Source of the DNA: Eubacteriales bacterium
GTDB lineage: Bacteria; Bacillota; Clostridia; Oscillospirales; CAG-272
DNA: 42,709 bases
Direction of reading: 5' to 3'
Assembly: GCA_045649165.1 (NCBI GenBank)
Contig: JAZRPI010000122.1
Coordinates: 1-42,709, forward strand
This document shows positions 10,491 through 38,416 of this stretch, piece by piece. The notes below the pieces were generated by a model. That model was not told where the DNA came from, made no database searches, and saw nothing but the letters and a program-made list of their open reading frames with translations. Position 1 is the first letter of the stretch. Each line of letters begins with the position of its first letter. The position numbers and the translations under genes were made by a program.

Positions 10491-10501
10491 AAAAGACTAT
10501 A
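10491..10501 (+). promoter_or_regulatory. A-tract+GACTATA motif, copy 1
   Basis: aaaaGACTATA directly after a terminator. ATG at 10519 with an AGGAG RBS downstream. Confidence 0.5.
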
Positions 10502-10518
10502 AATACAGGAGATAAACA

Positions 10519-12537
10519 ATGAAAACAATAGAACAGATGTATAACGAAGCAAAAGCACTAGTTGAGGATAGAACATACAATATCGGTGAGATTTCTGAAA
10601 AAACAGGTTTACAGAAAACTGCAAATGGATGGGTAAAGCCTTCTGAAACAAACTTCGGAAAAGTAAAACAAAATAAAAATGGAGAATGGGGTGTACAAAC
10701 CAAACAGGGAAAGAATTCTCCATTTATTAAGCATAAAAATGAATCAGAAGCAAAAAATGCTCTTGTAAATTATACAAAAGGATATAACTCAGTGGTGAAA
10801 ACAAAGCAAGATCCACATTCAGAAAAAGCAAGACAAATAAAACACTGGAATAAAGAAACTAAAAAAATAATGAAAGAGAATAAAGCTCAACGGAGAGCTG
10901 AACGAGCTGCTCAATTTAGAAATGACAAAAATCTTAAAAACCAGAAAAAAACAGAAAAAGAAGAAAAAAGCAAATGGGAAAAAACAACTGACTACCTAGG
11001 AAGAGACAGAATCTCATTAAAAACAAAACAGGGAGGTCTTGTAAGTATTTATGAAACAGACAATCCAAATCAAAAAAATAATCGATTTAGAGTAGATACA
11101 GGTACACATACAAATACATTTAATACAATGGAAGAAGCAAAAGCGTTTGCTGAAAAACACTACGGAGACACAAAAGAAAATGGACCAAAGGGTGATGTTG
11201 ACAGATTTGTTAAAAACAATAAATCTATGTGGCAAAAGAATATTGAAAAAGCGCCAGATGCTAGATTGAAAGAGTTAGCTGCAAAATCAGAAAAGGGAAA
11301 CGCCGCAGAAAAAGAAGTTGCAAAAATGGCAAAAGAAGAACTTGCAAAAAGAACATCTTCAACAAAAGCTGAAAATCCTTATGCTTTATCAAAAGAAGAA
11401 AAAAACGAAGCTATGAAAAATCCTAAAACAAGATTATCTCAAAAATATGATGAAGTAATAAAATCTAAAAAAGGTACACCACAATATAATACAGCTCTTG
11501 AAGAGTATACAAAGGAAAGAGAGATTTTTAAAAATTCACAAGGTGTTGAAGCATTAAAAGGATTTCCTGTAGTACCAATTTCTAAAGACTCTGCCTGCCG
11601 CATTACAGCCGATACAAAAATTAAATTAAAAAATGTAGTGGAAGATAGAAAATATCAGATTGGTGAAATTTCAGAAAAGACAGGTTTGCAAAAGACTGCA
11701 AATGGGTGGGTGAAACCAAAGAAAGGGACCTCCACAAAGAAAGAAGAAAGTAAAAAAGAAACAGCAGAAATAAAATATACAGGGGAATGGAAAACAGATG
11801 CTGAAAAATTCGACCCAGAAGCGCAAGAAGGGATAAAAGAGTTAGCTGCAATGACAGGCAAATCAGAAGAAGAGATATATCAAATTATGAAAGTATTTGT
11901 ACCAGGAATGCCAAAAGAGCGACAAAAGGAAGAAGAAAACAAAAACACATTTGTAAAATTTGATAAAAATCCTATTTCTGCAGATGTTGGAGATTGGGCC
12001 TTCTCTTCTTACGAAGACGGATCTACAGAAGAAGAATTAGCAGGATTTATCTACGAAGCAATAGAAATGGATGCAAATGTGGATATTGGAGAAGTTTTAC
12101 ACAATCTCGATTTACATGTAGAAAATTTCGATAAAGACAATCAAAAAAAATGGGAAAAGGTAAAAAACGATTTTATCAAAAGGTTTAAACCGAAACAAAC
12201 TCATAACCCTATGTCCACAAAAAATAAAAAAGAAGAACAAAAAGAACAGAAACCTAAGAAAGACTATGGGAAAGCAACAGGTGCGGCAAAAAAAGTAATA
12301 GATATGATTGATGATCTTGAAGTTCCATATAAAGATTTTTTCTTGGAATGCTTACAAAAAGGACTAAGTGTAGACGATGCTCTAGATGAGTTACGATCTA
12401 AAAAAGTTGCTTATTATGCAGGTTCTAAGTTTGACCCAAAAAAAGAGAAAGTAAATCAATTTTATGACCTCCAAGATACACTCAAAAATAAGGGATTAAG
12501 GACCGTTGTACCATTAAACTGGGGATTCTGGGAATAA
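10519..12537 (+). CDS. Large Lys/Glu-rich protein (672 aa) with an internally duplicated module; function unknown
   Basis: EDRTYNIGEISEKTGLQKTANGWVKP near the N-terminus and EDRKYQIGEISEKTGLQKTANGWVKP at about aa 380. Low complexity overall. Confidence 0.7.
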   Translation: MKTIEQMYNEAKALVEDRTYNIGEISEKTGLQKTANGWVKPSETNFGKVKQNKNGEWGVQTKQGKNSPFIKHKNESEAKNALVNYTKGYNSVVKTKQDPHSEKARQIKHWNKETKKIMKENKAQRRAERAAQFRNDKNLKNQKKTEKEEKSKWEKTTDYLGRDRISLKTKQGGLVSIYETDNPNQKNNRFRVDTGTHTNTFNTMEEAKAFAEKHYGDTKENGPKGDVDRFVKNNKSMWQKNIEKAPDARLKELAAKSEKGNAAEKEVAKMAKEELAKRTSSTKAENPYALSKEEKNEAMKNPKTRLSQKYDEVIKSKKGTPQYNTALEEYTKEREIFKNSQGVEALKGFPVVPISKDSACRITADTKIKLKNVVEDRKYQIGEISEKTGLQKTANGWVKPKKGTSTKKEESKKETAEIKYTGEWKTDAEKFDPEAQEGIKELAAMTGKSEEEIYQIMKVFVPGMPKERQKEEENKNTFVKFDKNPISADVGDWAFSSYEDGSTEEELAGFIYEAIEMDANVDIGEVLHNLDLHVENFDKDNQKKWEKVKNDFIKRFKPKQTHNPMSTKNKKEEQKEQKPKKDYGKATGAAKKVIDMIDDLEVPYKDFFLECLQKGLSVDDALDELRSKKVAYYAGSKFDPKKEKVNQFYDLQDTLKNKGLRTVVPLNWGFWE

Positions 12538-12614
12538 TATGAGTATGAGAGAAGTAACACTAGATACAAAGATAAGATGAAAAAAATAATACAACTCCAT
12601 TTTTCTTAAGACAT

Positions 12615-12640
12615 AGCTCTGACAAGTTCAGAGCTTTTTT
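12615..12640 (+). terminator. Rho-independent terminator
   Basis: agctctga / tcagagct stem (8 bp) plus TTTTTT. Confidence 0.8.
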
Positions 12641-12646
12641 AATTTT

Positions 12647-12657
12647 AAAAGACTATA
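12647..12657 (+). promoter_or_regulatory. A-tract+GACTATA motif, copy 2 (5 nt from the ATG)
   Basis: aaaaGACTATAactatATG. No SD possible. Confidence 0.55.
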
Positions 12658-12662
12658 ACTAT

Positions 12663-13322
12663 ATGAGAGAAATAACACCAGATACAAAGATTAAATTATC
12701 ACAAATAAAAAGACTTATTACTGATAAACATAGTAAAGATCAAGTCGGAACAGTCAGAAGATGGTCAGATAATAAATTACATGAGAAAACAAGTCACGGG
12801 TGGAAAGTTGTAGCAAATAATAAAGAATATGAAATAAAAGAATATAAAGAAGAGAAATCAAGAAAAGATTTATCACCCAAAATAACAACACAAAAGCAAT
12901 TTAATATTTTTGTGGATAACTTATTTAATAAAAACTATAAAGAAGCTGTTTCTACGATTCACCTACCACAAATAGATAGAAAATTATTAAAACAATTAGG
13001 TATCAAAGATAACACGCAGTTTATTTTTAAAGCTAGATACCCACACATAAATCCACAGAGAAAAGCAAACGAAGGTCAAGCCTTAAGGGAAGAAGAATAC
13101 AAAGCCATTCCAAATGCAATAAAAAACGCAAAAGAAGCATATATTGATAAAGAGAATCATAATTTTTTTATTATATTTCAAGATTTAAAAGATAATTCAA
13201 TGGTAAACAAAATTGTATTCAATAAAACAATTAAAGGGAATTATTTAGTAACTATAGGAAAAGTAAATAAAAAGGAAAGTATGAATAAGAAAAAAATATT
13301 GCTCGTAAAAGGTAGGAGTTGA
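12663..13322 (+). CDS. Hypothetical protein sharing the N-terminal T-x-DTKIKL module with the 672-aa protein
   Basis: MREITPDTKIKL... compared with ...RITADTKIKL in the previous gene. The last 6 codons run into the minus-strand tRNA-like element. Confidence 0.6.
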   Translation: MREITPDTKIKLSQIKRLITDKHSKDQVGTVRRWSDNKLHEKTSHGWKVVANNKEYEIKEYKEEKSRKDLSPKITTQKQFNIFVDNLFNKNYKEAVSTIHLPQIDRKLLKQLGIKDNTQFIFKARYPHINPQRKANEGQALREEEYKAIPNAIKNAKEAYIDKENHNFFIIFQDLKDNSMVNKIVFNKTIKGNYLVTIGKVNKKESMNKKKILLVKGRS

Positions 13323-13379
13323 ACCTACATACCAGTCATAAAATAATGGCTGCCTATTTCCACATTTAGGTACATTTAC
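13304..13379 (-). tRNA. tRNA-like gene with a non-canonical anticodon arm (possible pseudo-tRNA or unusual tRNA)
   Basis: Minus strand: acceptor GTAAATG / CTTTTAC (6 of 7 bp), D-arm CCTA-AATGTGGAAA-TAGG, T-arm GTAGG-TTCAACT-CCTAC, variable loop GGTAT. The anticodon stem AGCCA / TGACT has one C-A mismatch and an 8-nt loop TTATTTTA. Confidence 0.45.
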
Positions 13380-13391
13380 GAGCTTACTATT

Positions 13392-13420: not shown

Positions 13421-13438
13421 ATAAAACTTTCCATACAA

Positions 13439-13449
13439 AAAAGACTATA
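13439..13449 (+). promoter_or_regulatory. A-tract+GACTATA motif, copy 3 (5 nt from the ATG)
   Basis: aaaaaaGACTATAtaggtATG. Confidence 0.55.
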
Positions 13450-13454
13450 TAGGT

Positions 13455-14768
13455 ATGGAAGTAAAATGCAAAACACAACACACACTACCCTTGGAAGAAT
13501 TAACAGAGTTTCAAGGGAACCTCAAAGAACGAGATAATGTCGATATTGGCAAAATTATCAAGTCAATTAAAAAGCATGGTTTCTCGTTTCCTTTCTTTGT
13601 TTGGAATCATGATGCAATTAATCATGTATTGGACAGTCACGGAAGACTTAAAGCCTTACAACAAATGGTAGCACACGGGGAAAATATTCCAGAATTACCA
13701 ATTGTATATGTAGACTGTCGTGATGAAGCCGATGCAAAAGAATTGTTACTTAAATTAAACAGTCAATACGGAAAAATGACTGCAGAAAGTATAAAAGACT
13801 TTCTCGGAGATTTACAAATAGATTTTACAGAGTTAGCAATTCCTGACGGATTCCTGGACCTTTCAATTTTGGAAGAACCCAAAGAAAAAACAGACGATGA
13901 TGAAGCTCCTGAAATTGACTATGAAGAACCTGCTCAAAGCGAACAAGGGCAAGTGTATGAACTTGGTCCTCATAGATTAATGTGTGGAGACAGCACTAGC
14001 GCAGAAGATATGGCAATTCTTATGAATGGAGCTAAAGCCGATTTAATCATAACAGACCCACCATACAATGTTGATTATGAAGGAAGTAACGGAAAAAAAA
14101 TCCAAAACGACAAAATGGAAGATAACTCATTTTTAAACTTTCTGACTGCGGCATTTAAAACAATGCTTGGAGTTCTTAAAAACGGTGGCGTTTATTATAT
14201 ATGGCACGCAGATAGTGAAGGTTTTAATTTCAGACAAGCGATAAAAAACTGTGGTGGTATTGTTCGGCAATGTTTGATATGGGTTAAAAATAGTCTTGTT
14301 TTAGGTCGCCAGGATTACCAATGGAGACACGAACCTTGTCTATATGGTTGGAAAGAAGGCGCTGGTCACTATTGGGAAGGTGCTCGTGATTTATCCACAG
14401 TAATAGACAACAGACCAAATTATAAAACAATGAACAAAGATGAACTCATTGAAGAAATAAAAAAACTTCGAGGTGACAATATCCCGTCAACGATTATCTA
14501 CGAAGATAAACCAAGTAAAAATGATGATCACTCAACAATGAAGCCTGTCAAACTTTTTGAACGATTAATCAAAAACAGTTCAAAGGAAGAGGATATTATT
14601 CTCGACCCATTCGGTGGTTCAGGAACAACTATTATTGCATCACAGAAATTAAACAGACACGCAAGATTAATGGAACTTGACCCAAAATATTGTGATGTTA
14701 TCAGAAAGCGTTGGACTAAATACGCAAAAGAAAACGGTCTAGAAATTGGTAGTGGAGGATTAGAATAA
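13455..14768 (+). CDS. ParB-like N-terminal domain fused to an N6-adenine/N4-cytosine DNA methyltransferase
   Basis: IITDPPYNVDY (DPPY catalytic motif) and DPFGGSGTTIIA (SAM binding). The N-terminal 100 aa are ParB/Srx-like. Confidence 0.9.
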   Translation: MEVKCKTQHTLPLEELTEFQGNLKERDNVDIGKIIKSIKKHGFSFPFFVWNHDAINHVLDSHGRLKALQQMVAHGENIPELPIVYVDCRDEADAKELLLKLNSQYGKMTAESIKDFLGDLQIDFTELAIPDGFLDLSILEEPKEKTDDDEAPEIDYEEPAQSEQGQVYELGPHRLMCGDSTSAEDMAILMNGAKADLIITDPPYNVDYEGSNGKKIQNDKMEDNSFLNFLTAAFKTMLGVLKNGGVYYIWHADSEGFNFRQAIKNCGGIVRQCLIWVKNSLVLGRQDYQWRHEPCLYGWKEGAGHYWEGARDLSTVIDNRPNYKTMNKDELIEEIKKLRGDNIPSTIIYEDKPSKNDDHSTMKPVKLFERLIKNSSKEEDIILDPFGGSGTTIIASQKLNRHARLMELDPKYCDVIRKRWTKYAKENGLEIGSGGLE

Positions 14769-14998: not shown

Positions 14999-15427
14999 AT
15001 GGCAAAAAAAATATCAAAGAAACAAGTGCTAGACGCCATACAAGGCTCTTGTGGAATAATTTCTAAAGTGCAAAGAAAACTCAAAGCTGCACTGCAAGAA
15101 AACTTTGCGTGGGAAACTACAAAGAAATTTATTGAAAAATGGGAAGACACAAAAAAGGCATTCCAGGAAGAAAAAGAAGCTATTCTTGATTATGCAGAAA
15201 GTAATATTCACGAAGCAATCGTATCCAACAGAGATATCCAAGTATCAAAATGGTATTTGATGACCAAAGGTAAAGAGCGCGGATACGAACAGAATAACAC
15301 CTTCCAAATTGCAAATGATGAACCTTTGAATATTAATTTTGAAGGAGCAAGATTAACTCGTGAAGAATTGTTAAAAGCAGATAATATTGAAATTGGTGGT
15401 CTTTGTGAAGAAAGTTCTACCGAATGA
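14999..15427 (+). CDS. terS: Terminase small subunit (putative)
   Basis: 142 aa, directly upstream of and overlapping the large terminase. HTH-like N-terminus. Called from position. Confidence 0.5.
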   Translation: MAKKISKKQVLDAIQGSCGIISKVQRKLKAALQENFAWETTKKFIEKWEDTKKAFQEEKEAILDYAESNIHEAIVSNRDIQVSKWYLMTKGKERGYEQNNTFQIANDEPLNINFEGARLTREELLKADNIEIGGLCEESSTE

Positions 15428-16715
15428 AAACGATTTAAAAGTATTTGAACACCAAAGACAAATTGTTGATGGACCGCACACTTTACCCGAAGTAGAATGG
15501 TTTATTCTTGCAGGTGGGTATGGGTGCGGTAAATCATTTTCAATTGTGTTATGTATTCTCGACATTGTAAAAACATACAACGGGCAAGACATAAGTGTGG
15601 GAATAGGTTCAATCACAATTACACTTGCAAAAAAAACGATATGGAAAGATTTATCGGCAATCCTTAAAAGAAGCAAATCAAAATACACATTCAACAAACA
15701 AGATAATACACTGATTATTGGAACAATAACTTTTTTCTTTATTGCAATAGAACAACCAGAAGATATCTACGCATACAATGTGAATATATTTTTATGTGAT
15801 GAGATAGACGAATTGTCACAATCTAAAGTATTGGATGCCAACAAGGCAATCCGCGAACGCACAAGAATTATGCTTCCTGATGGAAGAAACCCTTATATTA
15901 TGTATTTTACAACGGTACAAGGATACCGTGGACTTTATAATGTTGTGAAAGAATTGTCACGCACTAAACAAAAATACTTTCTTGTTCGTGGAGAAACTAG
16001 AAAAAACACAACATTGGCAAAAAGTTATATAGATTCTCTTTATGCAATTTATGACGAAAACGAGCGCATGGCGTATCTAGAAGGAAGATTTGTGAACCTT
16101 CGAGCAGGACGAGTGTATCCTGACTTTCAAGATTCAACTTGCTTGTGTAAACCGTTCGATATTGGTGCAGAATACATTGTACAGATAGGACAGGACTTGA
16201 ACAGTGGATTTTCAAAAGGTGTCGCACTTATTAAGAAAGACAAAAGACTATATATAGTGAGAGGTTGGTCGTTCGTAGAAATCGGTCAAGCTCCACAGAT
16301 AATGCGTAGCACATATGTAGAAAATGAAATCGAGTGGTATCCTGACTCTGCAGGAAAAGAAATCTTAAAAGGTTATAAAAAAGAAATTATAGACTATGGG
16401 ATTCAATGCAGAATTGGTAAGGCAAACCCTAGAGTTATTGACCGTGTTTTTTATATTAATAAGTTATTCAGAATGGGGTTATTAGTTATGTTTGACTGCC
16501 CCGAAACTTACGAGCTGAAAGAAGCATTAAAAACAAGGCAATATGACGAAAGTGGGAAACCTGAAAAAGGAAAAGGTGAAAAATCACCAGACCACTACTG
16601 TGATGCATTGGAGTATGTAGTCTACAGAATTGTCAATTCGGATCCTGATTTTATGGACCTTAAAGAATTATCAAGGGAGAACATGAACAAAAATGGCCAC
16701 CTTCAAATCGCTTAG
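15387..16715 (+). CDS. terL: Terminase large subunit
   Basis: Walker A ILAGGYGCGKS and Walker B IFLCDEIDE. Nuclease-half size is appropriate. Start uncertain (TTG 15387 or GTG 15405). Confidence 0.85.
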   Translation: MKLVVFVKKVLPNENDLKVFEHQRQIVDGPHTLPEVEWFILAGGYGCGKSFSIVLCILDIVKTYNGQDISVGIGSITITLAKKTIWKDLSAILKRSKSKYTFNKQDNTLIIGTITFFFIAIEQPEDIYAYNVNIFLCDEIDELSQSKVLDANKAIRERTRIMLPDGRNPYIMYFTTVQGYRGLYNVVKELSRTKQKYFLVRGETRKNTTLAKSYIDSLYAIYDENERMAYLEGRFVNLRAGRVYPDFQDSTCLCKPFDIGAEYIVQIGQDLNSGFSKGVALIKKDKRLYIVRGWSFVEIGQAPQIMRSTYVENEIEWYPDSAGKEILKGYKKEIIDYGIQCRIGKANPRVIDRVFYINKLFRMGLLVMFDCPETYELKEALKTRQYDESGKPEKGKGEKSPDHYCDALEYVVYRIVNSDPDFMDLKELSRENMNKNGHLQIA

Positions 16716-18372: not shown

Positions 18373-18562
18373 TATTTTCAGACGCGTAATGGAAAAAAAA
18401 CACGAAGTTATGAAATCTTGGGATGAAGTTGTATTTGAAGCTGAAATCCCTCTTAGAAGTTGGATGACAGGAATAATGACTTCTAATCCCACAGATGCAG
18501 AATTAAAAGCAATAGCACCTGTTCTAAATACAACATTTGAATGGCTCAAATATGGCAAATAA
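18359..18562 (+). CDS. Hypothetical small protein
   Basis: ATG at 18359 after GGAGGA. The longer ORF-track start lies inside the portal gene. Confidence 0.45.
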   Translation: MDNYDIFRRVMEKKHEVMKSWDEVVFEAEIPLRSWMTGIMTSNPTDAELKAIAPVLNTTFEWLKYGK

Positions 18563-19454
18563 ATACAGTGGTTATATTTACGGACCAAAGACTGTAGCGG
18601 GATTTAATCGTATGCAACGGTTAGGATTTCCTCGTCCGATTTTTTCTGTTGAAAATAAGATTAATACCCACCTTAAAAAAGCGTATCAAAACTCGATTAA
18701 AAAAATCCTAGATGATTTCTCTAGAATTGCACAATCTACGGGGCTGACACAAGATGCCGACATCAGTAATAAAACAGCGGACTTTTTTAACCAATTGGCA
18801 GAAAACAAAGATTTGAACCAAAGAACATACCTAGTTATGGCAATGAACAACTTGCAAAGAGAATGGGAACAAGCAAGCCAATCTTCTGACTATGACGAAT
18901 ATTCAGAAGAGTGGAAAAAAAAACTAGATAAAATCTTATTTGAAAATCAAAAGGATTTTTTAACCCGTCTTAACAAAGATGCATCGGAAAAGTTTCAAGC
19001 TAGAATAACAGACTTCTCTATTGATAAACAACAGCTTTTTAATCAACACATGAAAAGGATTAGAGAATTATATCTCGATAATTCATTAGAAAGAATTCAA
19101 GGAGAAGAAAACGAACTTAAAAGAGAATTTCTAAAAAAATTAAATGCTTACATTATCGGAGATACAGAAACACTTGATGTATTGGAAATAACAAAAGATT
19201 TGCTTAATGATTGTGCTAGAATGGCTCGTTTTTTTGCCCGTGACCAAATGGCAAGGTTTAATAAGGCTGTAACAATTGCAACCTATGAAGATGCAGGAGT
19301 TACCAAAGTAAAGTGGGTAACAGCGCAGGACGGGAGAGTAAGAAATTCTCATGCGGCTTTGAATGGCCAAGTGTTTAGTATAGATAATCTGCCGCCAGAA
19401 TTAAATGACTATAATTGTAGATGTGGTTTAATACCCGTTGAATATAGGGAGTAA
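18552..19454 (+). CDS. Head morphogenesis protein (Mu F / SPP1 gp7 family)
   Basis: VKWVTAQDGRVRNSHAALNGQVFSIDN ... YNCRCGLIP matches the Mu F core. Confidence 0.8.
   Translation: MANKYSGYIYGPKTVAGFNRMQRLGFPRPIFSVENKINTHLKKAYQNSIKKILDDFSRIAQSTGLTQDADISNKTADFFNQLAENKDLNQRTYLVMAMNNLQREWEQASQSSDYDEYSEEWKKKLDKILFENQKDFLTRLNKDASEKFQARITDFSIDKQQLFNQHMKRIRELYLDNSLERIQGEENELKREFLKKLNAYIIGDTETLDVLEITKDLLNDCARMARFFARDQMARFNKAVTIATYEDAGVTKVKWVTAQDGRVRNSHAALNGQVFSIDNLPPELNDYNCRCGLIPVEYRE
19404..19413 (+). promoter_or_regulatory. A-tract+GACTATA motif copy inside the 3' end of the MuF-like gene
   Basis: aaatGACTATAAT, 50 nt upstream of ATG 19464. Confidence 0.35.
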
Positions 19455-21161: not shown

Positions 21162-21197
21162 GAGCAAGGTACGCTTCCAGCCTTGCTCGTTTTTTTT
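21162..21197 (+). terminator. Rho-independent terminator
   Basis: gagcaagg / ccttgctc stem plus gtttttttt. Confidence 0.75.
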
Positions 21198-21224: not shown

Positions 21225-21235
21225 AAAAGACTATA
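21225..21235 (+). promoter_or_regulatory. A-tract+GACTATA motif, copy (5 nt from the ATG)
   Basis: caaaaGACTATAaaggtATG. Confidence 0.55.
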
Positions 21236-21240
21236 AAGGT

Positions 21241-22431
21241 ATGGCAGAATTAAAGAATATCAGAATAGCAGTAAGTGGAATTTATGATTATGCATTGGAA
21301 GAGATTCCAAGTTTAAGACTACCAATGCCAGGACACGGTGCTCCTGATTGGGTTGAAGAAAAGAGAATTTATAAAGTTTATAGACCCGCTGAAACATTAA
21401 GAAGAGCTTGCGACAAGTTCAAAATGTTACCTTTGACACATTATCATCCACAATCACCTGTGAACGAGCAAAACTTTAGAGACTTAACTATCGGATACAC
21501 AGGGGAAAATCCATTTATTGATTACATCAAAGATAAAGATGAAGTAGGAATCCGTAGTAATGTTATGCTTTGTGATCAAGAAGCAATGGATTCATACAAC
21601 CGTGGCGAAACACAACTATCACCAGGATATGTTGCAGAGTTTGAATGGAAAAAAGGAACAGACCCACACGGGAACGAATATGACATTGTTATGAAAGAAA
21701 TAACAGATGTGAATCACCTTGCGTTATTACCTGCAGGCCGTGGTGGTAGTTATGCGGTTGTTTTAGATGAAGCACCAAAAAGAAAAACAATTTTTGACCT
21801 TGTAAATACAAAAGACGGTGCACCGATAGGAAACGATAACGCAAGTAAAGACCATAAAAAAGAAAATTCGGAAGGCTTGAGTGATAAAGAAAAAACTCAT
21901 CTTACAAAATTATTAAAAGAAAACGCTGTAGAATTTCCAATTGTAGAATTTTCAGAAGAGAATTATAAGAAATACTTGGGAACACCAATTGATACTCCAT
22001 TAGGGAAAGTGAAACTCGGTGAAAATCAATTTGAAAAATTAAAAGCAAAAAATAGGCAAAATCTAATAGGGGCAATACGGGAAACACTAAGCAAACCTTG
22101 TTTTATAGCAGAGGAAAAAAACGGAACAACTCTATATGTGAAATCTTTTACAAAAGATAACGAACAGAAAAATATTATGTCTGTTGTTATAAAAAGGGAT
22201 GGTTTAAATATTTCTATAAGTACTCATGAAGAACGAGAAAGTCAGATTTTAGCAAAAATAAAAAAAGCTGGCGTTCTCAAGGAGACAGCCAGCGACGACG
22301 GCACTGTACACGATAAATGTGTAGCCGATACAACTCGCGTTGTTTCTTTGATAATAACAGAAGATACCCAAAAAGTCAAAACAATTTTTGAACGCGTACA
22401 AGGAACGGTGTTTGACCGTTACAGAAAATAA
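21241..22431 (+). CDS. DUF2213-like prohead protease/scaffold protein with a roughly 190-aa C-terminal extension
   Basis: YKVYRPAETL..., LPLTHYHP, QLSPGYVAEF, DVNHLALLPAGRGG match the DUF2213 pattern. ATG at 21241 preferred over the track start at 21196. Confidence 0.65.
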   Translation: MAELKNIRIAVSGIYDYALEEIPSLRLPMPGHGAPDWVEEKRIYKVYRPAETLRRACDKFKMLPLTHYHPQSPVNEQNFRDLTIGYTGENPFIDYIKDKDEVGIRSNVMLCDQEAMDSYNRGETQLSPGYVAEFEWKKGTDPHGNEYDIVMKEITDVNHLALLPAGRGGSYAVVLDEAPKRKTIFDLVNTKDGAPIGNDNASKDHKKENSEGLSDKEKTHLTKLLKENAVEFPIVEFSEENYKKYLGTPIDTPLGKVKLGENQFEKLKAKNRQNLIGAIRETLSKPCFIAEEKNGTTLYVKSFTKDNEQKNIMSVVIKRDGLNISISTHEERESQILAKIKKAGVLKETASDDGTVHDKCVADTTRVVSLIITEDTQKVKTIFERVQGTVFDRYRK

Positions 22432-22442
22432 AAAAGACTATA
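22431..22442 (+). promoter_or_regulatory. A-tract+GACTATA motif copy
   Basis: aaaaaGACTATA right after the previous stop codon. ATG at 22462 with an AGGAG RBS downstream. Confidence 0.45.
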
Positions 22443-22461
22443 GATGTATAGGAGATATAGC

Positions 22462-26975: not shown

Positions 26976-27417
26976 TGAAAAATATATTGTTCCAAAACAG
27001 GGAAATTGGTGGAATCCGCAAGAAAATCAAGGGAATATAAACAATTGGTGTGCGTATGTAATCAAAGAAGGCAAAGGCAGGACTGTGCCATTTTACCATT
27101 CTGAAAACGGACAAAACTATGCAACACAATTAAAAATAACTACGATTGATTTACAATTTGTAGGCCCAAACAGTGAAGACATCGCCAATAGCGTGTCTTT
27201 TTGGTATTTAAGGGAAGATGTCAAAGAACAATTTGAACAAGTACGAGGTTCAATCTTGCCATCTGATGCAATCGCAAGGTCAAGCGTTTTTTACCAAGAC
27301 GGAGGAAATACGGTTCTTGCTTGGAATACACAAATCAAAATCAAATGGTTTCAACTAATCGACACGCAACAAGGAACAATGCCACTTATTCAATTAAACG
27401 GAAAAATTAATCAATAA
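26920..27417 (+). CDS. Neck or tail-completion protein (putative)
   Basis: Called from position only. Overlaps the previous ORF by 56 nt. Confidence 0.3.
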   Translation: MDLNQTTLRGILAQILSVDEKYIVPKQGNWWNPQENQGNINNWCAYVIKEGKGRTVPFYHSENGQNYATQLKITTIDLQFVGPNSEDIANSVSFWYLREDVKEQFEQVRGSILPSDAIARSSVFYQDGGNTVLAWNTQIKIKWFQLIDTQQGTMPLIQLNGKINQ

Positions 27418-27419
27418 AT

Positions 27420-27426
27420 AACTATA
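27420..27426 (+). promoter_or_regulatory. Variant motif AACTATA upstream of the sheath gene
   Basis: ataaatAACTATATAGGT is identical to copy 3 (GACTATATAGGT) except for G to A. ATG at 27448 with a GGAGG RBS. Confidence 0.3.
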
Positions 27427-27447
27427 TAGGTAGGAGGAAGTAATAAC

Positions 27448-32470: not shown

Positions 32471-33049
32471 TTATTTATACAATCGTTCTCTTCTTTTTGT
32501 TAAATTTTCTTTATTATTGTCATAATAAAAGCAAGTATAACCATTAACATTATATCCTTTTAGTTTTCTGCCAAGTGTTGAAATAGAATATAATTCACCT
32601 TGGTAGAGTACCTTATTTATACCGTTATAAGTAGTACAAGTTATAGAAGGGTCAGAAATATAATACAAAGTAGAATTAATAGGAATATTTAACAATTTAA
32701 AAGTTGTTTGATTTGATTGTTTTTCTTCTCCTAAATTAGGATGTTCTACCAACTTGAATAATTTATTAAATCTTACAGCTTGTTTAAAAACATTTAGCAC
32801 AGAATCTGGTGTTGTTTTGAAAAATTCTTTTTTTTGAGAGAAAGAAATCCCTAATAAAGAATGCAAAGAATTTTCTACTTGAGAAGTGTATTCAGGCGGA
32901 ACAGCCAAAAAAGCAAAACATTCAAAAGGTAACGGTACTGATGTACTGTACAGATTTTTTAATCTTTCTTTGATGTTTTTAGTTTTACCAACTTTAACCC
33001 AGTCTGGCATACAATCATTAGTCAAAATATAAATATATTCATACTTCAT
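32471..33049 (-). CDS. GIY-YIG superfamily (T5orf172/MUG113-type) nuclease-domain protein
   Basis: MKYEYIYILTNDCMPDWVKVGKTKNIKERLKNLYSTSVPLPFE matches the T5orf172 signature. ATG at 33049 after AAGGAG. One of only two minus-strand protein-coding genes in the phage (the other is the transposase), and the only one inside the structural modules. Confidence 0.75.
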   Translation of the reverse strand: MKYEYIYILTNDCMPDWVKVGKTKNIKERLKNLYSTSVPLPFECFAFLAVPPEYTSQVENSLHSLLGISFSQKKEFFKTTPDSVLNVFKQAVRFNKLFKLVEHPNLGEEKQSNQTTFKLLNIPINSTLYYISDPSITCTTYNGINKVLYQGELYSISTLGRKLKGYNVNGYTCFYYDNNKENLTKRRERLYK

Positions 33050-33105: not shown

Positions 33106-33116
33106 AAATGACTATA
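33106..33116 (+). promoter_or_regulatory. A-tract+GACTATA motif, copy (5 nt from the ATG)
   Basis: aaaaaaaaatGACTATAggggtATG. Confidence 0.55.
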
Positions 33117-33121
33117 GGGGT

Positions 33122-33421
33122 ATGAGAGACATAAAAACAGTTGAAAAAGTTACATTCCCCGATATAGAACTTGTAGAAAATTTTGAATTTACTGTAGTGT
33201 CTGAAAATGGGAATTTCAATTTTCATTTTCAGTGGTTTGCTAATAGGTGGAATCTGTGGGTAACACTTCCAGACGGAACTAAAAAGCAAGCGAGTGTATA
33301 TCCTAATGTTATTAGTTGGACGGGCAATCCACACTATGGAATAGTATTTTACACATCACTACAAGAGATTGATTTTAATTCATTATTTATGACGGAGTTA
33401 TACATAATACAATGGCTTTAA
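33122..33421 (+). CDS. Hypothetical tail or baseplate protein
   Basis: ATG at 33122. The upstream part of the ORF-track call overlaps the GIY-YIG promoter region. Confidence 0.5.
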   Translation: MRDIKTVEKVTFPDIELVENFEFTVVSENGNFNFHFQWFANRWNLWVTLPDGTKKQASVYPNVISWTGNPHYGIVFYTSLQEIDFNSLFMTELYIIQWL

Positions 33422-34287
33422 TTCCTGATTTTAATAGAATTATCAATCTACAATTTTTATCTGCAAATTATTCTCCAACACTTGTCTCTGATATTATCTG
33501 CCCTATTAATGGCAGGAAACCAAACATTGAAATTCAGGGAGAAATAACACCTGATGATATATTAAACTCGTTTAATGTAACGATTAAAAACTTGTACTTA
33601 GAAAATCTTTCACAACAATATGGAAAATTAAGAGTAACTGCTGGGTATAAAAATCAACCAAAGGTAGCATTCACAGGGTCTATTATTTCAATCTTTCCAG
33701 AAAAGCCAAGCCCAGAAGGTTCAACAGTTATACAATGTATGAGCAGCAATATTGAATCGTGGCTCAATAAATACATAAATATTAATTTACCACAAGGATT
33801 TACACTTTCACAAGCATTGTTATTAATAACTCAAAAATTAGGAATAGATGCGCCATATATACCTAGTAATCTTGCAAGTTTACAAAGTCAAATACCTTTG
33901 CAAATACAGGATAAGGCAGCAGAAGCAATTCACGCAATAAAAAAATGCTTTCCAACAATAAAAATAAAAACATTTTCAAATAAAATTACTGTGTGGGATT
34001 CATTACTGATAAACACGGGTACACTACCTAAAGAATTAAAATATTTATCTGCTCCACCACAATTAATAGCAGGCGAAAAAGGAGAAAGTCTTGCATGGAT
34101 AACTGCTCCGTGGGACCCAAGCCTTAGGCCTGGAGATTTGATTAAAATTAATCAAAGAAGTTTTGTCTCTAAAACAGCGTTTGGAATTCCTAGAACAGAA
34201 GGCATTTATAATGTTTTATCAATTGATTTTCACTTTTCAACGGTTGGTCAAATTAACCAAATGACAATACTAGGAGAGGCACAATAA
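33412..34287 (+). CDS. Baseplate or tail hub protein (putative, XkdQ-like position)
   Basis: Position and size. Confidence 0.35.
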   Translation: MALIPDFNRIINLQFLSANYSPTLVSDIICPINGRKPNIEIQGEITPDDILNSFNVTIKNLYLENLSQQYGKLRVTAGYKNQPKVAFTGSIISIFPEKPSPEGSTVIQCMSSNIESWLNKYININLPQGFTLSQALLLITQKLGIDAPYIPSNLASLQSQIPLQIQDKAAEAIHAIKKCFPTIKIKTFSNKITVWDSLLINTGTLPKELKYLSAPPQLIAGEKGESLAWITAPWDPSLRPGDLIKINQRSFVSKTAFGIPRTEGIYNVLSIDFHFSTVGQINQMTILGEAQ

Positions 34288-34967
34288 TGACAACACCTAG
34301 TGTATATAACGGGTTATCGTTTACGGAAAAAGATTTGATTGAATCAATTGTGAGTAATTTCTACTTTGTAGATTATGGATTTGTTTCTGCGGTAAACGGG
34401 GATAAAACCGTAAATGTAACCCACGCTAAATTTTTAACATCTGCAACAGGGGAGCAATTGGAAGCAACTATAACTAAAAATATAGAAGTTCTTACATTTG
34501 CGACAAAAGGAATTTCAATAAACTTTGAAATTAAACAAGGTGATAAAGTCTTGTTATTAGGTTTAAAAAACAGAGTTGAAAAAACACAAGATGTGACAAT
34601 TGCAACGCAACAGAATACACCTATTCATTATTGTAGAGACACAATAAAAGCAATTCCTTTTGGTGTTTTTGATTCTACTGCCAAAATACAAATTGATTTT
34701 ACAAAAGGAATAAATATTACATCTGATGAAGCAATTGTAATTAATGCCAACAAAAAAAATATAGAACTTAATGGAAATAAAAAAAGCTTTGTTACTTACG
34801 CGGAATTAAATCAAGCTTTACAAAGTTTATGGGCTGCGATAAAAGCACATACACACCCCGTATCAACGCCTGCAGGTGCTGGAAGTTCTTCAGCTTCTGT
34901 AGAGTTACAAACACAATCATTAGATATTTCAGCAAGTGAAACAAAGACTATAAAGACAGGTGGTTAA
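34287..34967 (+). CDS. Baseplate central spike (gpV/gp45-like, putative)
   Basis: Position, plus a C-terminal KAHTHPVS His-x-His motif as found at spike apexes. Confidence 0.45.
   Translation: MTTPSVYNGLSFTEKDLIESIVSNFYFVDYGFVSAVNGDKTVNVTHAKFLTSATGEQLEATITKNIEVLTFATKGISINFEIKQGDKVLLLGLKNRVEKTQDVTIATQQNTPIHYCRDTIKAIPFGVFDSTAKIQIDFTKGINITSDEAIVINANKKNIELNGNKKSFVTYAELNQALQSLWAAIKAHTHPVSTPAGAGSSSASVELQTQSLDISASETKTIKTGG
34942..34952 (+). promoter_or_regulatory. A-tract+GACTATA motif copy inside the end of the spike gene
   Basis: caaaGACTATAaag, 18 nt upstream of ATG 34971 (AGGTGG RBS). Confidence 0.35.
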
Positions 34968-34970: not shown

Positions 34971-35294
34971 ATGGATATGAAAATGAAAGCAGAAGATATA
35001 TCTACTAGTGGTAATAGCTGGGATTGTAAGGTGGTAAATGGAATAGTGCCTTTGATTTCAGGCGATGAAGAAAATCTACAAAATGCAATTCTTGCGGGAT
35101 TTTTGATAAAAGGCACTATCCCATTATTGCCAGATGCAGGTGTTCCGTGGCCTGACTTTTTGACAAAAAAAATAACCTTCGGAGATTTAGATTATTTTGT
35201 GAGAGAAAGTCTTATACAAGTAGGAAGAGAAGACTATAACCCACAATATGACATACAGGAAGATATGCTAGTTATGACAATGAGTAAGATATAG
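34971..35294 (+). CDS. Small baseplate protein (gpW/XkdS-like position)
   Basis: 107 aa, upstream of the baseplate J-like gene. Confidence 0.4.
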   Translation: MDMKMKAEDISTSGNSWDCKVVNGIVPLISGDEENLQNAILAGFLIKGTIPLLPDAGVPWPDFLTKKITFGDLDYFVRESLIQVGREDYNPQYDIQEDMLVMTMSKI

Positions 35295-35307
35295 GAGTGA
35301 AAAAAAA

Positions 35308-36789: not shown

Positions 36790-36791
36790 AA

Positions 36792-37367
36792 ATGATTAAA
36801 CAAAACAAAAACTACCCAAAACAAATGAATGGCCCCGTAATTTCTGCTTTTGGAAATGCTGTTGATTCAGAATTAAAAAAAGCACAATTTATTGAAGATT
36901 ATCTGTACGGGCTATCAATTAGAACCGCACAGGAAACTGAACTAGATAACATTGGACGAATTATCGGTTATTTGCGACCGCTAGTGCCGCAAGGCTTCAA
37001 CACAGAAAACCTTTTTATCTTTGGAAATCTGCCAATGATTCAAGAGCCAACAAATGGGTTCTCAACAATTAATTCTACAATTGGTGGAAAGTTGTCTAGT
37101 ATCTATTCTGGAGAAACAGGGTTCATGCCGAACGACTTATACAAGCAATTGTTGACACAAATTGCGTATCTTAAAAGGTACGGAATTACACTGTCTAGTG
37201 TGGATAAAATCTGCTCGGTAATTGATAAGAATTTCACAATAGAATGGGATGATAACCAAGATATTGTGGTAACTTTTAATACAAGTATTGGATATAAAAA
37301 CTTGTGGATTTTGACAAGAATTTTTTATTCTGTGGCAACATCTCCACAGGTATTAATTTATTCTTAA
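36792..37367 (+). CDS. Baseplate/tail protein (gpI/XkdU-like position)
   Basis: Called from position only. Confidence 0.4.
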   Translation: MIKQNKNYPKQMNGPVISAFGNAVDSELKKAQFIEDYLYGLSIRTAQETELDNIGRIIGYLRPLVPQGFNTENLFIFGNLPMIQEPTNGFSTINSTIGGKLSSIYSGETGFMPNDLYKQLLTQIAYLKRYGITLSSVDKICSVIDKNFTIEWDDNQDIVVTFNTSIGYKNLWILTRIFYSVATSPQVLIYS

Positions 37368-37381
37368 GGAGAGATAGGAAT

Positions 37382-38407
37382 ATGATACAAAATCAAATAT
37401 TCGAAGGATTCCCAATATTTGGGGATAATTCTTCTATGAGTCAACCAGAAGCTGCAATATACGCTAATGGGTTTGCGCCTGCTGATGTATTGCCAGCAGA
37501 ATATTATAATTGGCTTACATATAAAGCAAGTAAAGGAATAACAGACCTAAACAAAGGTGTTGTTTCAATGGAAGCCGAATTAAACAATGTTGTGTCTGCA
37601 GGAGGCCAAGAGCCAAGCGAAAATACAAACAATCAAATTATAACAGCAATTCGTTATTTGATTAATCAGGCAAAAGCAGAAGCTATACTAGCAGCACACC
37701 CTATAGGTTCTTTGTATTGGAGCAGTAAAGATATAAACCCAAGTACACTGTTCGGTGGAACATGGACCCCAATCAAAGACAAATTTGTTCTTGCAGCAGG
37801 TGATACCTACGCTAACGGTGCAACAGGTGGAGCTGCAACAGTAACATTAACAACACAGCAGATACCTAGCCACTCACATACAGGCCCAAACCATACTCAT
37901 ACAGGCCCAAACCATACCCACTCTTTTACACCAAGCGGAAGTGTTTCTGCTCACTCACACGGATTAAATAATCATACGCATAGTTTTACACCTAGTGGAA
38001 GTGTTACATCAACATTCAAAGGAACTGCCGCAAGTGGAAGTGTTAATGTAGAAACAGGTTATAATCCTTCTGCGTCGGGGGTTTTTTCAAGTACAGATTT
38101 ATCAAATAAAAATGTAGGAGATGACTCTGGATCATATCACGACCAATATACACTTAATTTTAATATGACACCTAGTGGAAGTGTTACATCAACATTCAAA
38201 GGAACATCAGGAACAACAGGCGGAAGCACTGCTAATACAGCCAATGCCACTCCTTCATTCACGGGAACAGCAGGAACAACGGGAGCAGCAGGAACAGGTA
38301 ACACAGGTGCAAGTGGAACAGGTGCAACGGGAACAGCAGGCGGAGGAACAGCACATAACAATATGCCACCTTATGTTGTTAAATACTGTTGGGAAAGAAC
38401 TGCATAA
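37382..38407 (+). CDS. Tail fibre with His-x-His repeats and a C-terminal collar-type motif
   Basis: SHSHTGPNHTHTGPNHTHSF...AHSHGLNNHTHSF. Gly/Thr-rich repeats. C-terminal AHNNMPPYVVKYCW. ATG at 37382 after AAGGAG. Confidence 0.75.
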   Translation: MIQNQIFEGFPIFGDNSSMSQPEAAIYANGFAPADVLPAEYYNWLTYKASKGITDLNKGVVSMEAELNNVVSAGGQEPSENTNNQIITAIRYLINQAKAEAILAAHPIGSLYWSSKDINPSTLFGGTWTPIKDKFVLAAGDTYANGATGGAATVTLTTQQIPSHSHTGPNHTHTGPNHTHSFTPSGSVSAHSHGLNNHTHSFTPSGSVTSTFKGTAASGSVNVETGYNPSASGVFSSTDLSNKNVGDDSGSYHDQYTLNFNMTPSGSVTSTFKGTSGTTGGSTANTANATPSFTGTAGTTGAAGTGNTGASGTGATGTAGGGTAHNNMPPYVVKYCWERTA

Positions 38408-38416
38408 ATGACTATA
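38406..38416 (+). promoter_or_regulatory. A-tract+GACTATA motif copy
   Basis: taaatGACTATATAAT after the fibre stop codon. ATG at 38433 with a GGAGG RBS. Confidence 0.4.

Follow-up and report, generated by a model that had tools for sequence, protein, structure and literature searches.

In the window, the whole 42,709-nt stretch of DNA analysed, a recurrent asymmetric element (AAAW-GACTATA-nA) precedes the late transcription units of a Treponema prophage. The element is best explained, with a probability of about 0.6, as a -10-only promoter for middle/late genes, read by a phage-encoded mini sigma factor and shared by a family of Treponema prophages. The candidate minimal sigma factor is a 149-aa protein encoded at 6847..7296 on the + strand, with a GTG start preceded by the Shine-Dalgarno (SD) sequence GAGGTGG.

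Strand bias, composition and spacing of the element

The window contains 11 exact copies of GACTATA, all located on the + strand (11/11, 0 on the - strand), compared with an expectation of 3.6 for both strands together; 0 of 100 shuffles reached 11 copies. The initial annotation had considered the count to be weak evidence and proposed shuffled controls; the signal proved stronger than it had claimed. A position matrix (PWM) trained exclusively on other loci and phages, with the window left out, yielded 11 matches of at least 14 bits, all of them on the + strand and none on the - strand. Simulations give an expectation of 0.15 matches per strand and never more than 2 in 300 runs, and no site of at least 14 bits occurs in the early region (1-10494). 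Re-examination confirmed the positions reported earlier for nine GACTATA copies (10495, 12651, 13443, 19407, 21229, 22436, 33110, 34946 and 38410), an AACTATA variant at 27420 and a further copy at 35232, and added one that had been overlooked, at 16246 in the large terminase gene. The copy at 35232..35238 (+), within a coding sequence and devoid of an A-tract, had already been viewed with doubt; its matrix score below 8 bits identifies it as a chance intragenic copy outside the system.

Sixty-five aligned sites, numbered such that the A of an ATG located exactly 5 nt past the motif (N5) is +1, exhibit the conserved signal A-16 A-15 A-14 W-13 GACTATA(-12 to -6) n A-4 n n Y-1 R+1, so that the 13-base motif spans -16 to -4. 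G-12 and C-10 are invariant, A-15 is present in 64/65 sites and A-4 in 60/65, and Y-1 and R+1 are also conserved. The information is approximately zero upstream of -18, in agreement with the earlier remark that no conserved -35 is visible. GACTAT occupies the hexamer from -12 to -7 and retains A-11 and T-7, the two bases captured by sigma region 2 in sigma-70-type promoters.

The element might instead be a promoter for a phage single-subunit (T7/SP6-like) or other non-canonical RNA polymerase that starts after TATA and generates 5-nt leaders. SP6/T7-type promoters have a core (..CACTATAG..) similar to GACTATA(G/A), and the base following the motif is usually G in the relatives of higher GC content. 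However, T7-type promoters are much longer than the motif, and the ~40.5-kb element yielded no RNA polymerase gene; its large ORFs all either have an assigned structural or DNA function or encode a low-complexity K/E-rich protein. Related contigs measure 38.8-40 kb, about the size of a genome. Such a polymerase is therefore improbable.

The distances between the motif and the start codon are bimodal, with 23 distinct cases at N5, 33 at N13-21 and none at 8-12. The start codon of the N5 class is ATG in all 23 cases, never GTG or TTG, and no SD is present. In the SD-led cases the SD begins 5-7 nt past the motif, at or within 1-2 nt of the predicted +1. The four ATGs of the window that had been described as lying exactly 5 nt past the motif without an SD (12663, 13455, 21241 and 33122) were confirmed in the sequence, and the occurrence of an ATG at one offset in 4/11 copies corresponds to a binomial p of ~4e-5, given an ATG chance of ~0.02 per offset.

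A fixed distance to the ATG or SD could also originate at the RNA level, from an endoribonuclease processing site that leaves leaderless or SD-first ends or from a translation-enhancing element. Consistent with this, several copies lie at terminator-free junctions, where read-through transcripts would contain them, and the head protease carries an RNase-like PBECR2 domain. Several other copies, however, are located directly past strong intrinsic terminators, leaving little upstream RNA to process, and PBECR2 is replaced by unrelated domains (LPD3, PBECR3) or by nothing in relatives that keep the motif. Moreover, the constant spacing applies to the SD start or the ATG rather than to the ATG alone, which better fits a fixed 5' end, and placing +1 on the ATG retains A-11, T-7 and Y-1 R+1 in register, all features of a promoter at the DNA level. 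An RNA-level role is thus considered unlikely.

Sites along the late region and in related prophages

All sites described below are on the + strand, and three of them directly follow intrinsic terminators, also on the + strand. The terminator at 10450..10474 closes the early region and is directly followed by late promoter-like site 1 (AAAAGACTATAaatacA, 10491..10507, 20.0 bits), the predicted +1 of which, A10507, is the first base of the SD AGGAG preceding ATG 10519 of a 672-aa K/E-rich protein; the same site is found in L152. Site 2 (12647..12663, 16.7 bits) follows the terminator at 12615..12635 and is kept in L001 and L122; its N5 spacing makes ATG 12663, the start of a 219-aa protein, a candidate for leaderless expression. 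The third terminator, read from the sequence as gagcaagg...ccttgctc followed by T8 (21162..21197), precedes a site at 21225..21241 (19.7 bits) that is separated by N5 from ATG 21241 of the DUF2213 head protease with the PBECR2 domain, likewise a leaderless candidate. The Pfam DUF2213 alignment begins at residue 5 of the protein starting at this ATG, and the N5-ATG arrangement before the protease is kept in L122, L123, L125, L126 and L127, with a spacing of N7 in L141.

Two further leaderless candidates are found in the late region. Site 3 (13439..13455, 21.7 bits) heads the TerS-TerL-portal-MuF block and is separated by N5 from ATG 13455 of a ParB-N6/N4 DNA methyltransferase (MTase). The orthologous MTase, with the N-terminus ME[VI][KT]CKT, is preceded by the same N5-ATG in L122, L128, L130, L141, L142, L144, L152 and L153. 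The site at 33106..33122 (18.8 bits) shows the N5 spacing to ATG 33122 of a 99-aa protein at the head of the baseplate genes, and is retained in L151 despite a differing upstream cassette.

The remaining intergenic or junction sites are SD-led. A score of 22.4 bits belongs to the site at 22432..22448, directly past the protease stop codon, where the predicted +1 A22448 is followed by the SD AGGAGA, ATG 22462 and genes for a 246-aa protein, a 170-aa protein and the major head protein (phrog_264); this site is kept at the same junction in L122-L125. The variant AAAT-AACTATA (27416..27432, 14.4 bits) places its predicted +1, A27432, on the first base of AGGAGG ahead of ATG 27448 of an unassigned 385-aa tail protein, and the orthologous junction has GACTATA in L122-L127. 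A site overlapping the 3' end of gene 34287-34967 (34942..34958, 14.3 bits) has a predicted +1 at A34958, followed by the SD GGTGG and ATG 34971. Past the tail-fibre gene stop codon (38406..38422, 18.7 bits), the predicted +1 G38422 is the first base of GGAGG, and the small genes from ATG 38433 onward occupy the position of a lysis cassette.

Two copies reside within genes. The copy inside the TerL gene (15387-16715; 16242..16258, 16.3 bits) overlaps the codons R-L-Y-I-V-R-G-W and is shared with L122, L141, L152 and L153; it may act as an internal promoter or result from the conserved codons. The second copy (19403..19419, 14.9 bits) falls in the 3' end of the Mu-F-like gene (18537-19454), 50 nt before ATG 19464; it overlaps the codons of a conserved D-Y-N-C-R-C and is kept within the same codons in L122, L126, L127 and L141. 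Coding constraint may account for all or part of the conservation of both copies.

The motif recurs at orthologous junctions in L122-L127, L141, L152 and L153, at 33-49 % GC and with protease identity down to 50 %. Across the relatives overall, the motif and its N5-ATG spacing, always with ATG, persist at 33-52 % GC and ~50 % protein identity, in support of the leaderless arrangement proposed at the outset, and raw GACTATA counts display the same strand bias as the PWM sites. A cassette swap in L151 has inserted a different gene together with a terminator, motif and N5-ATG of its own, and has left the next motif in place. The early module is shared by T. pectinovorum L128 and T. socranskii L130, which carry the motif, N5-ATG included, despite a different, siphovirus-type structural module.

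The position of copies 16246 and 19407 on conserved codons, together with the cassette exchange at motif boundaries in L151, could be taken to indicate a motif with no role in expression, be it a recombination boundary or an artefact of base composition or codons in an A-rich genome. The conservation over 33-52 % GC, strict polarity, intergenic placement, exact N5 and confinement to late regions make this hardly credible. That the sites follow terminators or occupy gene junctions, exclusively on the coding strand and in the late region, agrees with the initial reading of the motif as a promoter.

The 149-aa candidate sigma factor

Gene 6847-7296 is the last of the DUF6291 / DnaC-like replication block. 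The AlphaFold (AF2) model of its product (pLDDT 82.6, core about 94) comprises a helical core (residues ~29-121) resembling sigma region 2; a short C-terminal segment, RKVDKIVxFVDxD, is also conserved, and the protein has no sigma-4 domain. Each of the best 16 Foldseek matches of the model in the PDB is a sigma region-2 domain; the probabilities reach 1.0 and the target-normalised TM values 0.70. A structure search of BFVD returned phage sigma factors as the best matches, and a divergent member, 36 % identical, gave the same outcome with sigma region 2 on top; single E-values in these structure searches are weak (0.08-0.8). Alignment to the RpoE N-terminal profile using hhalign gave P=0.005 in the expected GDxxAf / FxxWLY register, at a probability of 7 %. 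The family has no sequence match in Pfam, NCBIfam, PHROG or PDB, and Pfam Sigma70_r2 was detected in no member; Rep_Org_C (replisome-organiser C-terminus) gave sub-threshold matches in 5/27 members.

In 24 loci anchored on the 149-aa gene, 51 PWM sites are located downstream on the same strand and 1 downstream on the opposite strand, compared with 0 on both strands of the 175 kb upstream, which include host flanks and early genes; the matrix for this count had been trained on + strand sites from the same loci. Canonical sites are scarce or absent downstream of divergent homologues in three loci (L136, L143 and L149), for which 4-10 kb of downstream sequence is available. A 143-aa protein (2396-2827), a 95-aa zinc-finger-like protein (4993-5280), SSB, DUF6291 and the DnaC-like protein are equally co-conserved with the motif, and co-occurrence alone therefore does not single out the sigma-like protein. 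On the basis of fold similarity in the predicted model combined with co-occurrence, the 149-aa protein is probably a sigma factor.

The Rep_Org_C matches and the location in the replication module beside the DnaC-like loader imply that the 149-aa protein could be a replication protein. The late promoter would then be read by the host holoenzyme, either with an alternative Treponema sigma or with sigma-A assisted by another phage protein, such as the 143-aa or the 95-aa zinc-finger-like protein, whose co-conservation with the motif is at least as good. The lack of a significant sequence match between the 149-aa protein and sigma families is in keeping with this possibility. In contrast, the invariant G-12/C-10, the A-tract in place of TRTG and the missing -35 are unlike sigma-A promoters, and an asymmetric 13-bp element over the -10 region at a fixed start distance is typical of sigma/RNAP recognition rather than of activator binding. 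The empty 175 kb upstream of the gene, and the top rank of sigma region 2 in two independent structure libraries and for two family members, also argue against the host holoenzyme, which is a doubtful though not negligible alternative to the phage-encoded mini sigma.

Proposed mechanism and comparison with known systems

In the mechanism that we infer, gene 6847-7296 would be expressed from the early operon to yield a sigma factor consisting of little more than a region-2 domain. The 149-aa protein would bind the host core RNAP, and the complex would recognise the single ~13-bp element AAAW-GACTAT-A-n-A without a -35, in a gp55-like manner. Initiation is predicted at the conserved purine 6 nt past the motif. 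Where this purine is the A of the ATG (12663, 13455, 21241 and 33122), a leaderless mRNA would be made and translated; elsewhere the transcript would start with the SD itself, giving 8-16-nt leaders.

The analogy to T4 gp55 raised in the initial annotation gains from a 149-aa protein that has a predicted sigma-region-2 fold, lacks sigma-4 and co-occurs with the motif. Leaderless transcripts are not known as a feature of T4, whereas many transcripts of the Treponema phage are predicted to be leaderless. T4 gp55 is composed of a sigma-R2 homology domain and a helix-loop-helix, and serves -10-only promoters (PMC7892883). The T4 late system (gp55, TATAAATA, gp33, gp45) and the Treponema phage have in common a phage sigma, a candidate one in the Treponema phage, that is essentially a region-2-like domain without sigma-4 (PMC7892883, PMC2988020), a single -10-region element, no conserved -35 and many scattered late copies. 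They differ in that no sequence homology between the 149-aa protein and gp55 was found (7d7c_F ranks 42, E=5.9, in the structure search with the divergent member), AAAWGACTATAnA takes the place of TATAAATA, neither a gp33-like co-activator nor a phage sliding clamp was identified, and the phage is a temperate ~40-kb Treponema prophage rather than a lytic T4-like phage.

The phiEco32 gp36 promoters likewise consist of one element, tAATGTAtA, and transcription starts 6-8 bp downstream of it (PMC8948821). The two systems share a single 9-13 bp -10-region element of loosely similar sequence (AATG..TATA), with the predicted +1 of the Treponema phage 6 nt downstream. In lytic coliphage phiEco32, however, gp36 is a 214-aa protein that requires gp79 and combines an NTD with a sigma-4-like CTD contacting the -35 region (PMC12276001); the 149-aa protein has no second domain, and no sequence similarity to gp36 was found. 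The best structural matches are region 2 of ECF (group 4) sigmas, namely SigC (2o7g) and ShbA (9isn), and include sigmaE region 2 bound to the -10 element (4lup, 2map, 5or5). The motifs of the 149-aa protein resemble GDxxAf...FxxWLyrI, but ECF sigmas carry sigma-4 and use bipartite -35/-10 promoters.

The head module, with portal_3, Mu F and the DUF2213 protease, is Mu-like, and separate predicted late promoters precede the protease and baseplate genes, as do those of Mu I and P (PMC4461284). The C-activated Mu promoters (Plys, PI, PP, Pmom) number four, compared with about ten sites here; no Mor/C homologue was found in the Treponema phage, and its element extends over the -10 region instead of lying upstream of it like an activator site. 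Leaderless systems (lambda cI from PRM; Deinococcus-Thermus, mycobacteria) similarly have a -10-like element 5-7 nt before the ATG, no SD, and ATG as the sole start codon (PMC12340547, PMC4633059, PMC10491246). In the Treponema phage, by contrast, this arrangement belongs to a promoter class specific to the phage rather than to a housekeeping -10, and coexists in one genome with strongly SD-led genes and with transcripts predicted to start at the SD. If the proposed reading is correct, these prophages would encode a previously unrecognised phage mini sigma factor, and many of their mRNAs would start at the ATG or at the ribosome-binding site.

Distribution and placement of GACTATA in the prophage

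The 42,709-bp window contains 11 copies of the heptamer GACTATA, all on the + strand, against 3.6 expected on both strands together; a count of 11 was reached in 0/100 dinucleotide shuffles. The coordinates in the initial annotation are all correct; it overlooked the copy at 16246, which lies within the large terminase gene. Nearly all copies are directly preceded by AAAA or AAAT, and on the 3' side they share a pyrimidine at the fifth base and a purine, mostly A, at the sixth. A position matrix trained exclusively on loci other than the window gave, at a threshold of at least 14 bits, 11 sites, all on the + strand (0.15 expected per strand) and all outside the early region, 1-10494. The copy at 35232, already regarded as doubtful, fails this matrix test. 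Two copies that are kept in relatives overlap codons, at 16246 those for R-L-Y-I-V-R-G-W of TerL and at 19407 those for the conserved D-Y-N-C-R-C of a Mu-F-like protein; each may be an internal promoter, a by-product of coding, or both at once.

Four ATG codons (12663, 13455, 21241 and 33122) lie exactly 5 nt 3' of the motif and lack a Shine-Dalgarno (SD) sequence, as had been noted, and most other genes in the window have a GGAGG- or GAGGTG-type SD. At the sites 10495, 22436, 27420, 34946 and 38410, the SD itself starts at the sixth base after the motif or at most 1-2 nt from it. Four copies had been described as following intrinsic terminators or long gaps; terminators were located immediately 5' of three, 10495, 12651 and 21229. 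All of the predicted leaderless genes in the window are preceded by a terminator, a gap or a divergent gene. An ORF directly precedes four of the five SD-led sites, and read-through transcripts would require an SD there; the tendency is not absolute in relatives. Readings of the motif as a Chi-like, methylation or pac site were rejected in view of its intergenic position, its strand polarity and its constant distance to start codons. Rfam and tRNA scans of the window returned nothing except one dubious ARAGORN call, a "tRNA-???" with a 4-base anticodon at 13303-13380 (- strand) in the gap before site 13443, which is probably a false positive.

Conservation of the predicted promoter element and of its spacing

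Every relative retrieved by means of the head protease (89 % to 50 % protein identity, 35 % to 49 % GC) has AAAA/AAAT-GACTATA at gene junctions, in coding-strand orientation and in many cases immediately behind a terminator. The spacing is conserved as well: the motif is followed after five nucleotides either by ATG (N5-ATG) or by AGGAGG and then ATG, and both architectures recur. The N5-ATG arrangement before the ParB-methyltransferase and protease genes is kept throughout this set, and portal and small cassette genes show it in some relative phages. Gene callers often extend the protease and other N5-ATG genes upstream, such that the protease is given as 407-418 aa instead of 396 and homologues of N5 genes are annotated with 10-20 surplus N-terminal residues. 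The C-terminal domain of the DUF2213 head protease (21241-22431) varies, being PBECR2 here and PBECR3, LPD3 or none in relatives.

In L151, a locus near-identical to the window, the - strand T5orf172 gene is replaced by a small + strand gene that comes with a terminator, A8-GACTATA and N5-ATG of its own, and the next site (window 33110) is retained after the swapped cassette; the motif therefore travels with the gene that it precedes. The displaced T5orf172/MUG113 (GIY-YIG-like) gene, at 32471-33046 on the - strand, is inserted between tail genes, and the corresponding slot in L151 is 5250-5700. The difference is a moron-like cassette swap at motif boundaries. Strand polarity, intergenic placement, exact spacing and conservation together make it barely credible that the motif has no role in expression.

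The logo derived from 65 distinct sites, with +1 set on the A of the N5 ATGs, reads A-16, A-15 (64/65), A-14, W-13, GACTATA, n, A-4 (60/65), n, n, Y-1, R+1. The information content is approximately zero upstream of -18, and therefore there is no -35 element, in agreement with the initial annotation. In this register GACTAT spans -12 to -7 and retains A-11 and T-7, which in canonical promoters are the two bases that sigma region 2 captures. Motif-to-start distances are bimodal: among 76 distinct sites, 23 lie at exactly 5 nt, 33 at 13-21 nt and none at 8-12 nt. This distribution would follow from a fixed RNA 5' end, such that either the AUG itself forms the 5' end or the leader is long enough to accommodate an SD and spacer. 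The 23 distinct N5 cases in the family all begin with ATG, never GTG or TTG, and the four in the window display the sequence hallmarks of leaderless genes, namely a -10-type element 5-7 nt before the AUG and no SD.

An action of the motif in RNA, as a processing site or a translation element, seems improbable, as terminators lie directly upstream of sites, the spacing is fixed to the SD start or the ATG, and the RNase-like domain of the protease is not conserved in relatives. The observation of a recurrent, positioned motif is confirmed and extended, and its original interpretation, a -10-only promoter class giving leaderless transcripts, is supported.

A candidate minimal sigma factor in the early module

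The window is a complete NCBI contig carrying a prophage of ~40 kb. Its early operon encodes Gam, SSB, Erf, HNH, DNA methylases, DUF6291, a DnaC-like loader and a resolvase; a Mu-like or PB1-like head module follows (TerL, portal_3, Mu F, DUF2213 protease, major head protein), then tail and baseplate genes and, at the right end on the - strand, an rve-type transposase-like gene. A perfect 122-bp direct repeat (1-122 and 40544-40665) bounds an element of ~40.5 kb. It contains 4-5 tandem 21-nt units (TGCCCTAAATTTGACAAAA+NN) and ends just after TTGACA; the left copy is followed by the -10-like hexamer TAATCT and then by the early genes, and the right copy adjoins the transposase-like gene, followed by host-like DNA (MMPL gene). 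The repeat may be longer, as the contig starts exactly at it, and these repeats are also where L152, a related contig of 38.8 kb, ends. Possible roles include attL/attR, terminal repeats, or operator or transposase-binding sites. The segment 39070-39235, which separates the transposase-like gene from the last phage gene on the + strand, holds short tandem ttcgttaat/ttcgtattt repeats followed by gaaatgaa(t)ag units, plus a strong terminator. A C5 DNA methyltransferase is apparently split into the ORFs 3184-4077 and 4100-4996, both phrog_116, which match profile positions 203-386 and 409-489, respectively, with a large insertion.

No RNA polymerase, known sigma factor, or ArpU/RinA or Mor/C family member was found among the prophage proteins. 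A promoter for an unrecognised phage RNA polymerase, starting right after TATA, is very improbable, as this genome-sized element contains no such gene; none of the large ORFs has the RNA polymerase family match expected of a T7/SP6-type enzyme. The 672-aa ORF (10519-12537), the first gene under the late motif, was rejected as a YonO-like or other RNA polymerase, being of low complexity, K/E-rich and internally repeated, with no family match. Its 30-residue repeat, (V)EDR(T/K)Y(N/Q)IGEISEKTGLQKTANGWVKP, occurs near residues 15 and 385, and homologues are present in four related loci (L129, L142, L152 and L153).

The gene at 6847-7296, directly after that of the DnaC-like loader, encodes a 149-aa protein in which sigma region-2-like motifs are discernible by eye: GDxxAL..MY.LG..IA.KYI, then KEEKAHNAITYII, then SFTAYLYLR..HELFY. 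The family comprises 51 close homologues and 375 clusters at 50 % identity. Twenty-seven plus 10 of its members gave no Pfam, NCBIfam, PHROG or PDB-sequence match, nor a significant match to Sigma70_r2 (PF04542) or any known sigma. A search of PDB sequences with the family profile returned noise only, Pfam searches of distant and longer members yielded no bridging Sigma70 match, and 5/27 members have sub-threshold matches to Rep_Org_C.

The AlphaFold2 model (pLDDT 82.6 overall, ~94 in the core) has the helical fold of sigma region 2. In a Foldseek comparison with the PDB, the best 16 matches are all sigma region-2 domains, with probabilities of 0.9-1.0 and target-normalised TM scores of 0.55-0.70 but E-values of only 0.08-0.8; the Pribnow-box recognition region of SigC, ShbA, and region 2 of sigmaE in complex with its -10 element are among them. 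The top BFVD matches are phage sigma factors, among them a T4-type "sigma-like factor". For a model of a 36 %-identical family member, sigma factors are again on top, and T4 gp55 (7d7c_F) is a weak match at rank 42 (E=5.9). Profile-profile comparison of 187 family members with the RpoE N-terminal profile aligned 62 columns in the expected register (P=0.005), with an HHalign probability of only 7 %; an earlier hhalign run of a 27-sequence alignment against a single RpoE sequence had aligned out of register. The protein ends ~25 residues after the sigma-2-like core, leaving no region 4, so it could not read a -35 element, which agrees with the promoter logo.

Searching species-representative genomes with the family alignment gave 21 loci. 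The isolates are Treponema socranskii ATCC 35536 and Treponema sp. Marseille-Q4130, and most of the MAGs are Treponema or Spirochaetia, which identifies the hosts as treponemes; a further homologue occurs in T. pectinovorum. In 24 loci containing the sigma-like gene, a matrix threshold of at least 12 bits gave 51 sites downstream of the gene on its own strand and one downstream on the opposite strand; the 175 kb upstream contained no site in either orientation, and this strand bias is equally seen in raw GACTATA counts. The early module and the motif, including N5-ATG, are also present in T. pectinovorum (L128) and T. socranskii (L130), whose structural module is of another, siphovirus type. 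SSB, DUF6291, the DnaC-like loader, a 143-aa protein and a 95-aa protein are similarly co-conserved with the motif, which is associated with the early module as a whole, not with the sigma-like gene alone. It is the predicted fold that singles out the 149-aa protein as the likely factor reading the motif.

Recognition of the same promoter by a host sigma or another phage co-factor is a rather unlikely alternative, given that the motif is unlike sigma-A promoters, that sites are missing upstream of the sigma-like gene, and that the 149-aa protein has a predicted sigma-2 fold. Variant motifs that accompany divergent sigma-like proteins (AACTATA in the locus L129, GACTGTA in L137 and L149) are too few to support co-variation of protein and motif. 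L149, with a distant homologue, has no canonical late sites downstream of the gene, where GACTGTA variants occur instead; upstream of it, three tandem TTTAAA(C/A)ACTATACAAG units lie at 8319-8400.

Several neighbouring features were recorded. The 143-aa (2396-2827) and 95-aa (4993-5280) proteins are co-conserved with the sigma-like gene in 17/25 loci at 47-70 % identity, above that of the sigma-like protein itself. The 95-aa protein has CxxC/His zinc-finger-like motifs, and neither has informative matches; they could be late-transcription co-factors or replication/recombination proteins. A conserved 59-aa orphan gene, also present in L152, lies behind a sigma-70-like promoter, TTGATA-17-TATAGT (window 10200-10446), between the resolvase and the early-region terminator, just before the first late site; one might speculate that its product is an anti-sigma or co-activator. 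Directly after the sigma-like gene is a non-coding gap of ~340 nt (7297-7636), rich in short hairpins and with no Rfam match; L152 and L153 have gaps of 210-225 nt at this position. The gap may serve as a replication origin or a middle promoter, or encode a regulatory RNA.

Proposed late transcription and its relation to known systems

The early operon, probably driven by TTGACA-17-TAATCT near 115-145, would express the 149-aa sigma2-only factor, which together with host core RNA polymerase would recognise the 13-bp element and open the DNA from about A-11 to T-7. With the conserved purine 6 nt 3' of the motif as the initiating base, there would be about ten late transcription starts. Four of these would produce leaderless mRNAs, for the 219-aa protein, the head protease and two proteins whose genes head blocks, the ParB-methyltransferase (packaging) and the 99-aa protein (baseplate), and five would give 8-16-nt leaders beginning with the SD.

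T4 late transcription, to which the initial annotation had likened the motif, is the closest system in logic to the one proposed, with a predicted sigma2-only fold and -10-only promoters both present here. T4 gp55 consists of a sigma-R2 homology domain and a helix-loop-helix, and T4 late promoters are -10-only (PMC7892883, PMC2988020). In contrast to T4, the 149-aa protein lacks gp55 homology (no PHROG match), the element is AAAWGACTATAnA rather than TATAAATA, and the phage is temperate, with a spirochaete host and predicted leaderless transcripts. PHROG and Pfam scans of the early genes revealed no recognisable counterpart of the T4 co-activator gp33 or of the sliding clamp gp45, which couple late transcription to replication, and no clamp-loader family. 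The phiEco32 gp36 promoters consist of one element, tAATGTAtA, and their TSS lies 6-8 bp downstream of it (PMC8948821); gp36 has a sigma-4-like C-terminal domain and requires gp79 (PMC12276001). ECF sigma factors, whose region-2 domains are the best structural match to the model, differ in having sigma-4 and bipartite promoters. There is no Mor/C family match, and the present element is asymmetric and overlaps the -10 position, unlike the upstream dyad site of Mu. Leaderless genes in which a -10 element adjoins the ORF have been described for housekeeping promoters (PMC12340547, PMC4633059); in the literature searched they are not described as a phage-specific promoter class. Searches for GACTATA phage promoters and Treponema prophage transcription returned nothing relevant.

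The GenBank phages include no close relative of this prophage, and INPHARED gave no match by megablast (24 kb) or by tblastn with the sigma-like protein. An IMG/VR scan for AAAAGACTATAN5ATG returned mostly chance matches, with multiple sites only in a near-identical contig.

At a probability of roughly one in five, the 149-aa protein would found a new orphan sigma2-only family (375 clusters), embedded in the replication module of spirochaete prophages, possibly coupled to replication or to a partner, and governing a regulon whose mRNA 5' ends fall on the AUG or the SD. Such coupling may resemble that of T4 gp55; candidates for it are RKVDKIVxFVDxD, an invariant peptide at the C-terminus, and the two universally co-conserved small proteins, of 143 aa and of 95 aa (zinc-finger-like). 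A phage minimal sigma with a -10-only promoter is a known kind; the orphan family, the well-defined 13-bp promoter and the conserved leaderless/SD-at-+1 design would be new, with the predicted TSS and the fold-based sigma assignment as the main uncertainties. Minimal sigmas that need only a -10-region element are known from very few lytic coliphages, e.g. T4 gp55 and partly phiEco32 gp36.

The promoter is unusually long and invariant, so that late transcription units are predictable from sequence alone. Genetic manipulation of spirochaetes is hard, and the 13-bp promoter and 149-aa factor could form a compact orthogonal expression module for these bacteria. If confirmed, the system would represent an independent, sequence-unrelated minimal-sigma family in temperate Treponema prophages of gut and oral bacteria, and a clear case of leaderless, "SD-at-+1" and ordinary SD-led genes mixed in one phage, in which late-gene translation would partly bypass SD-dependent initiation.
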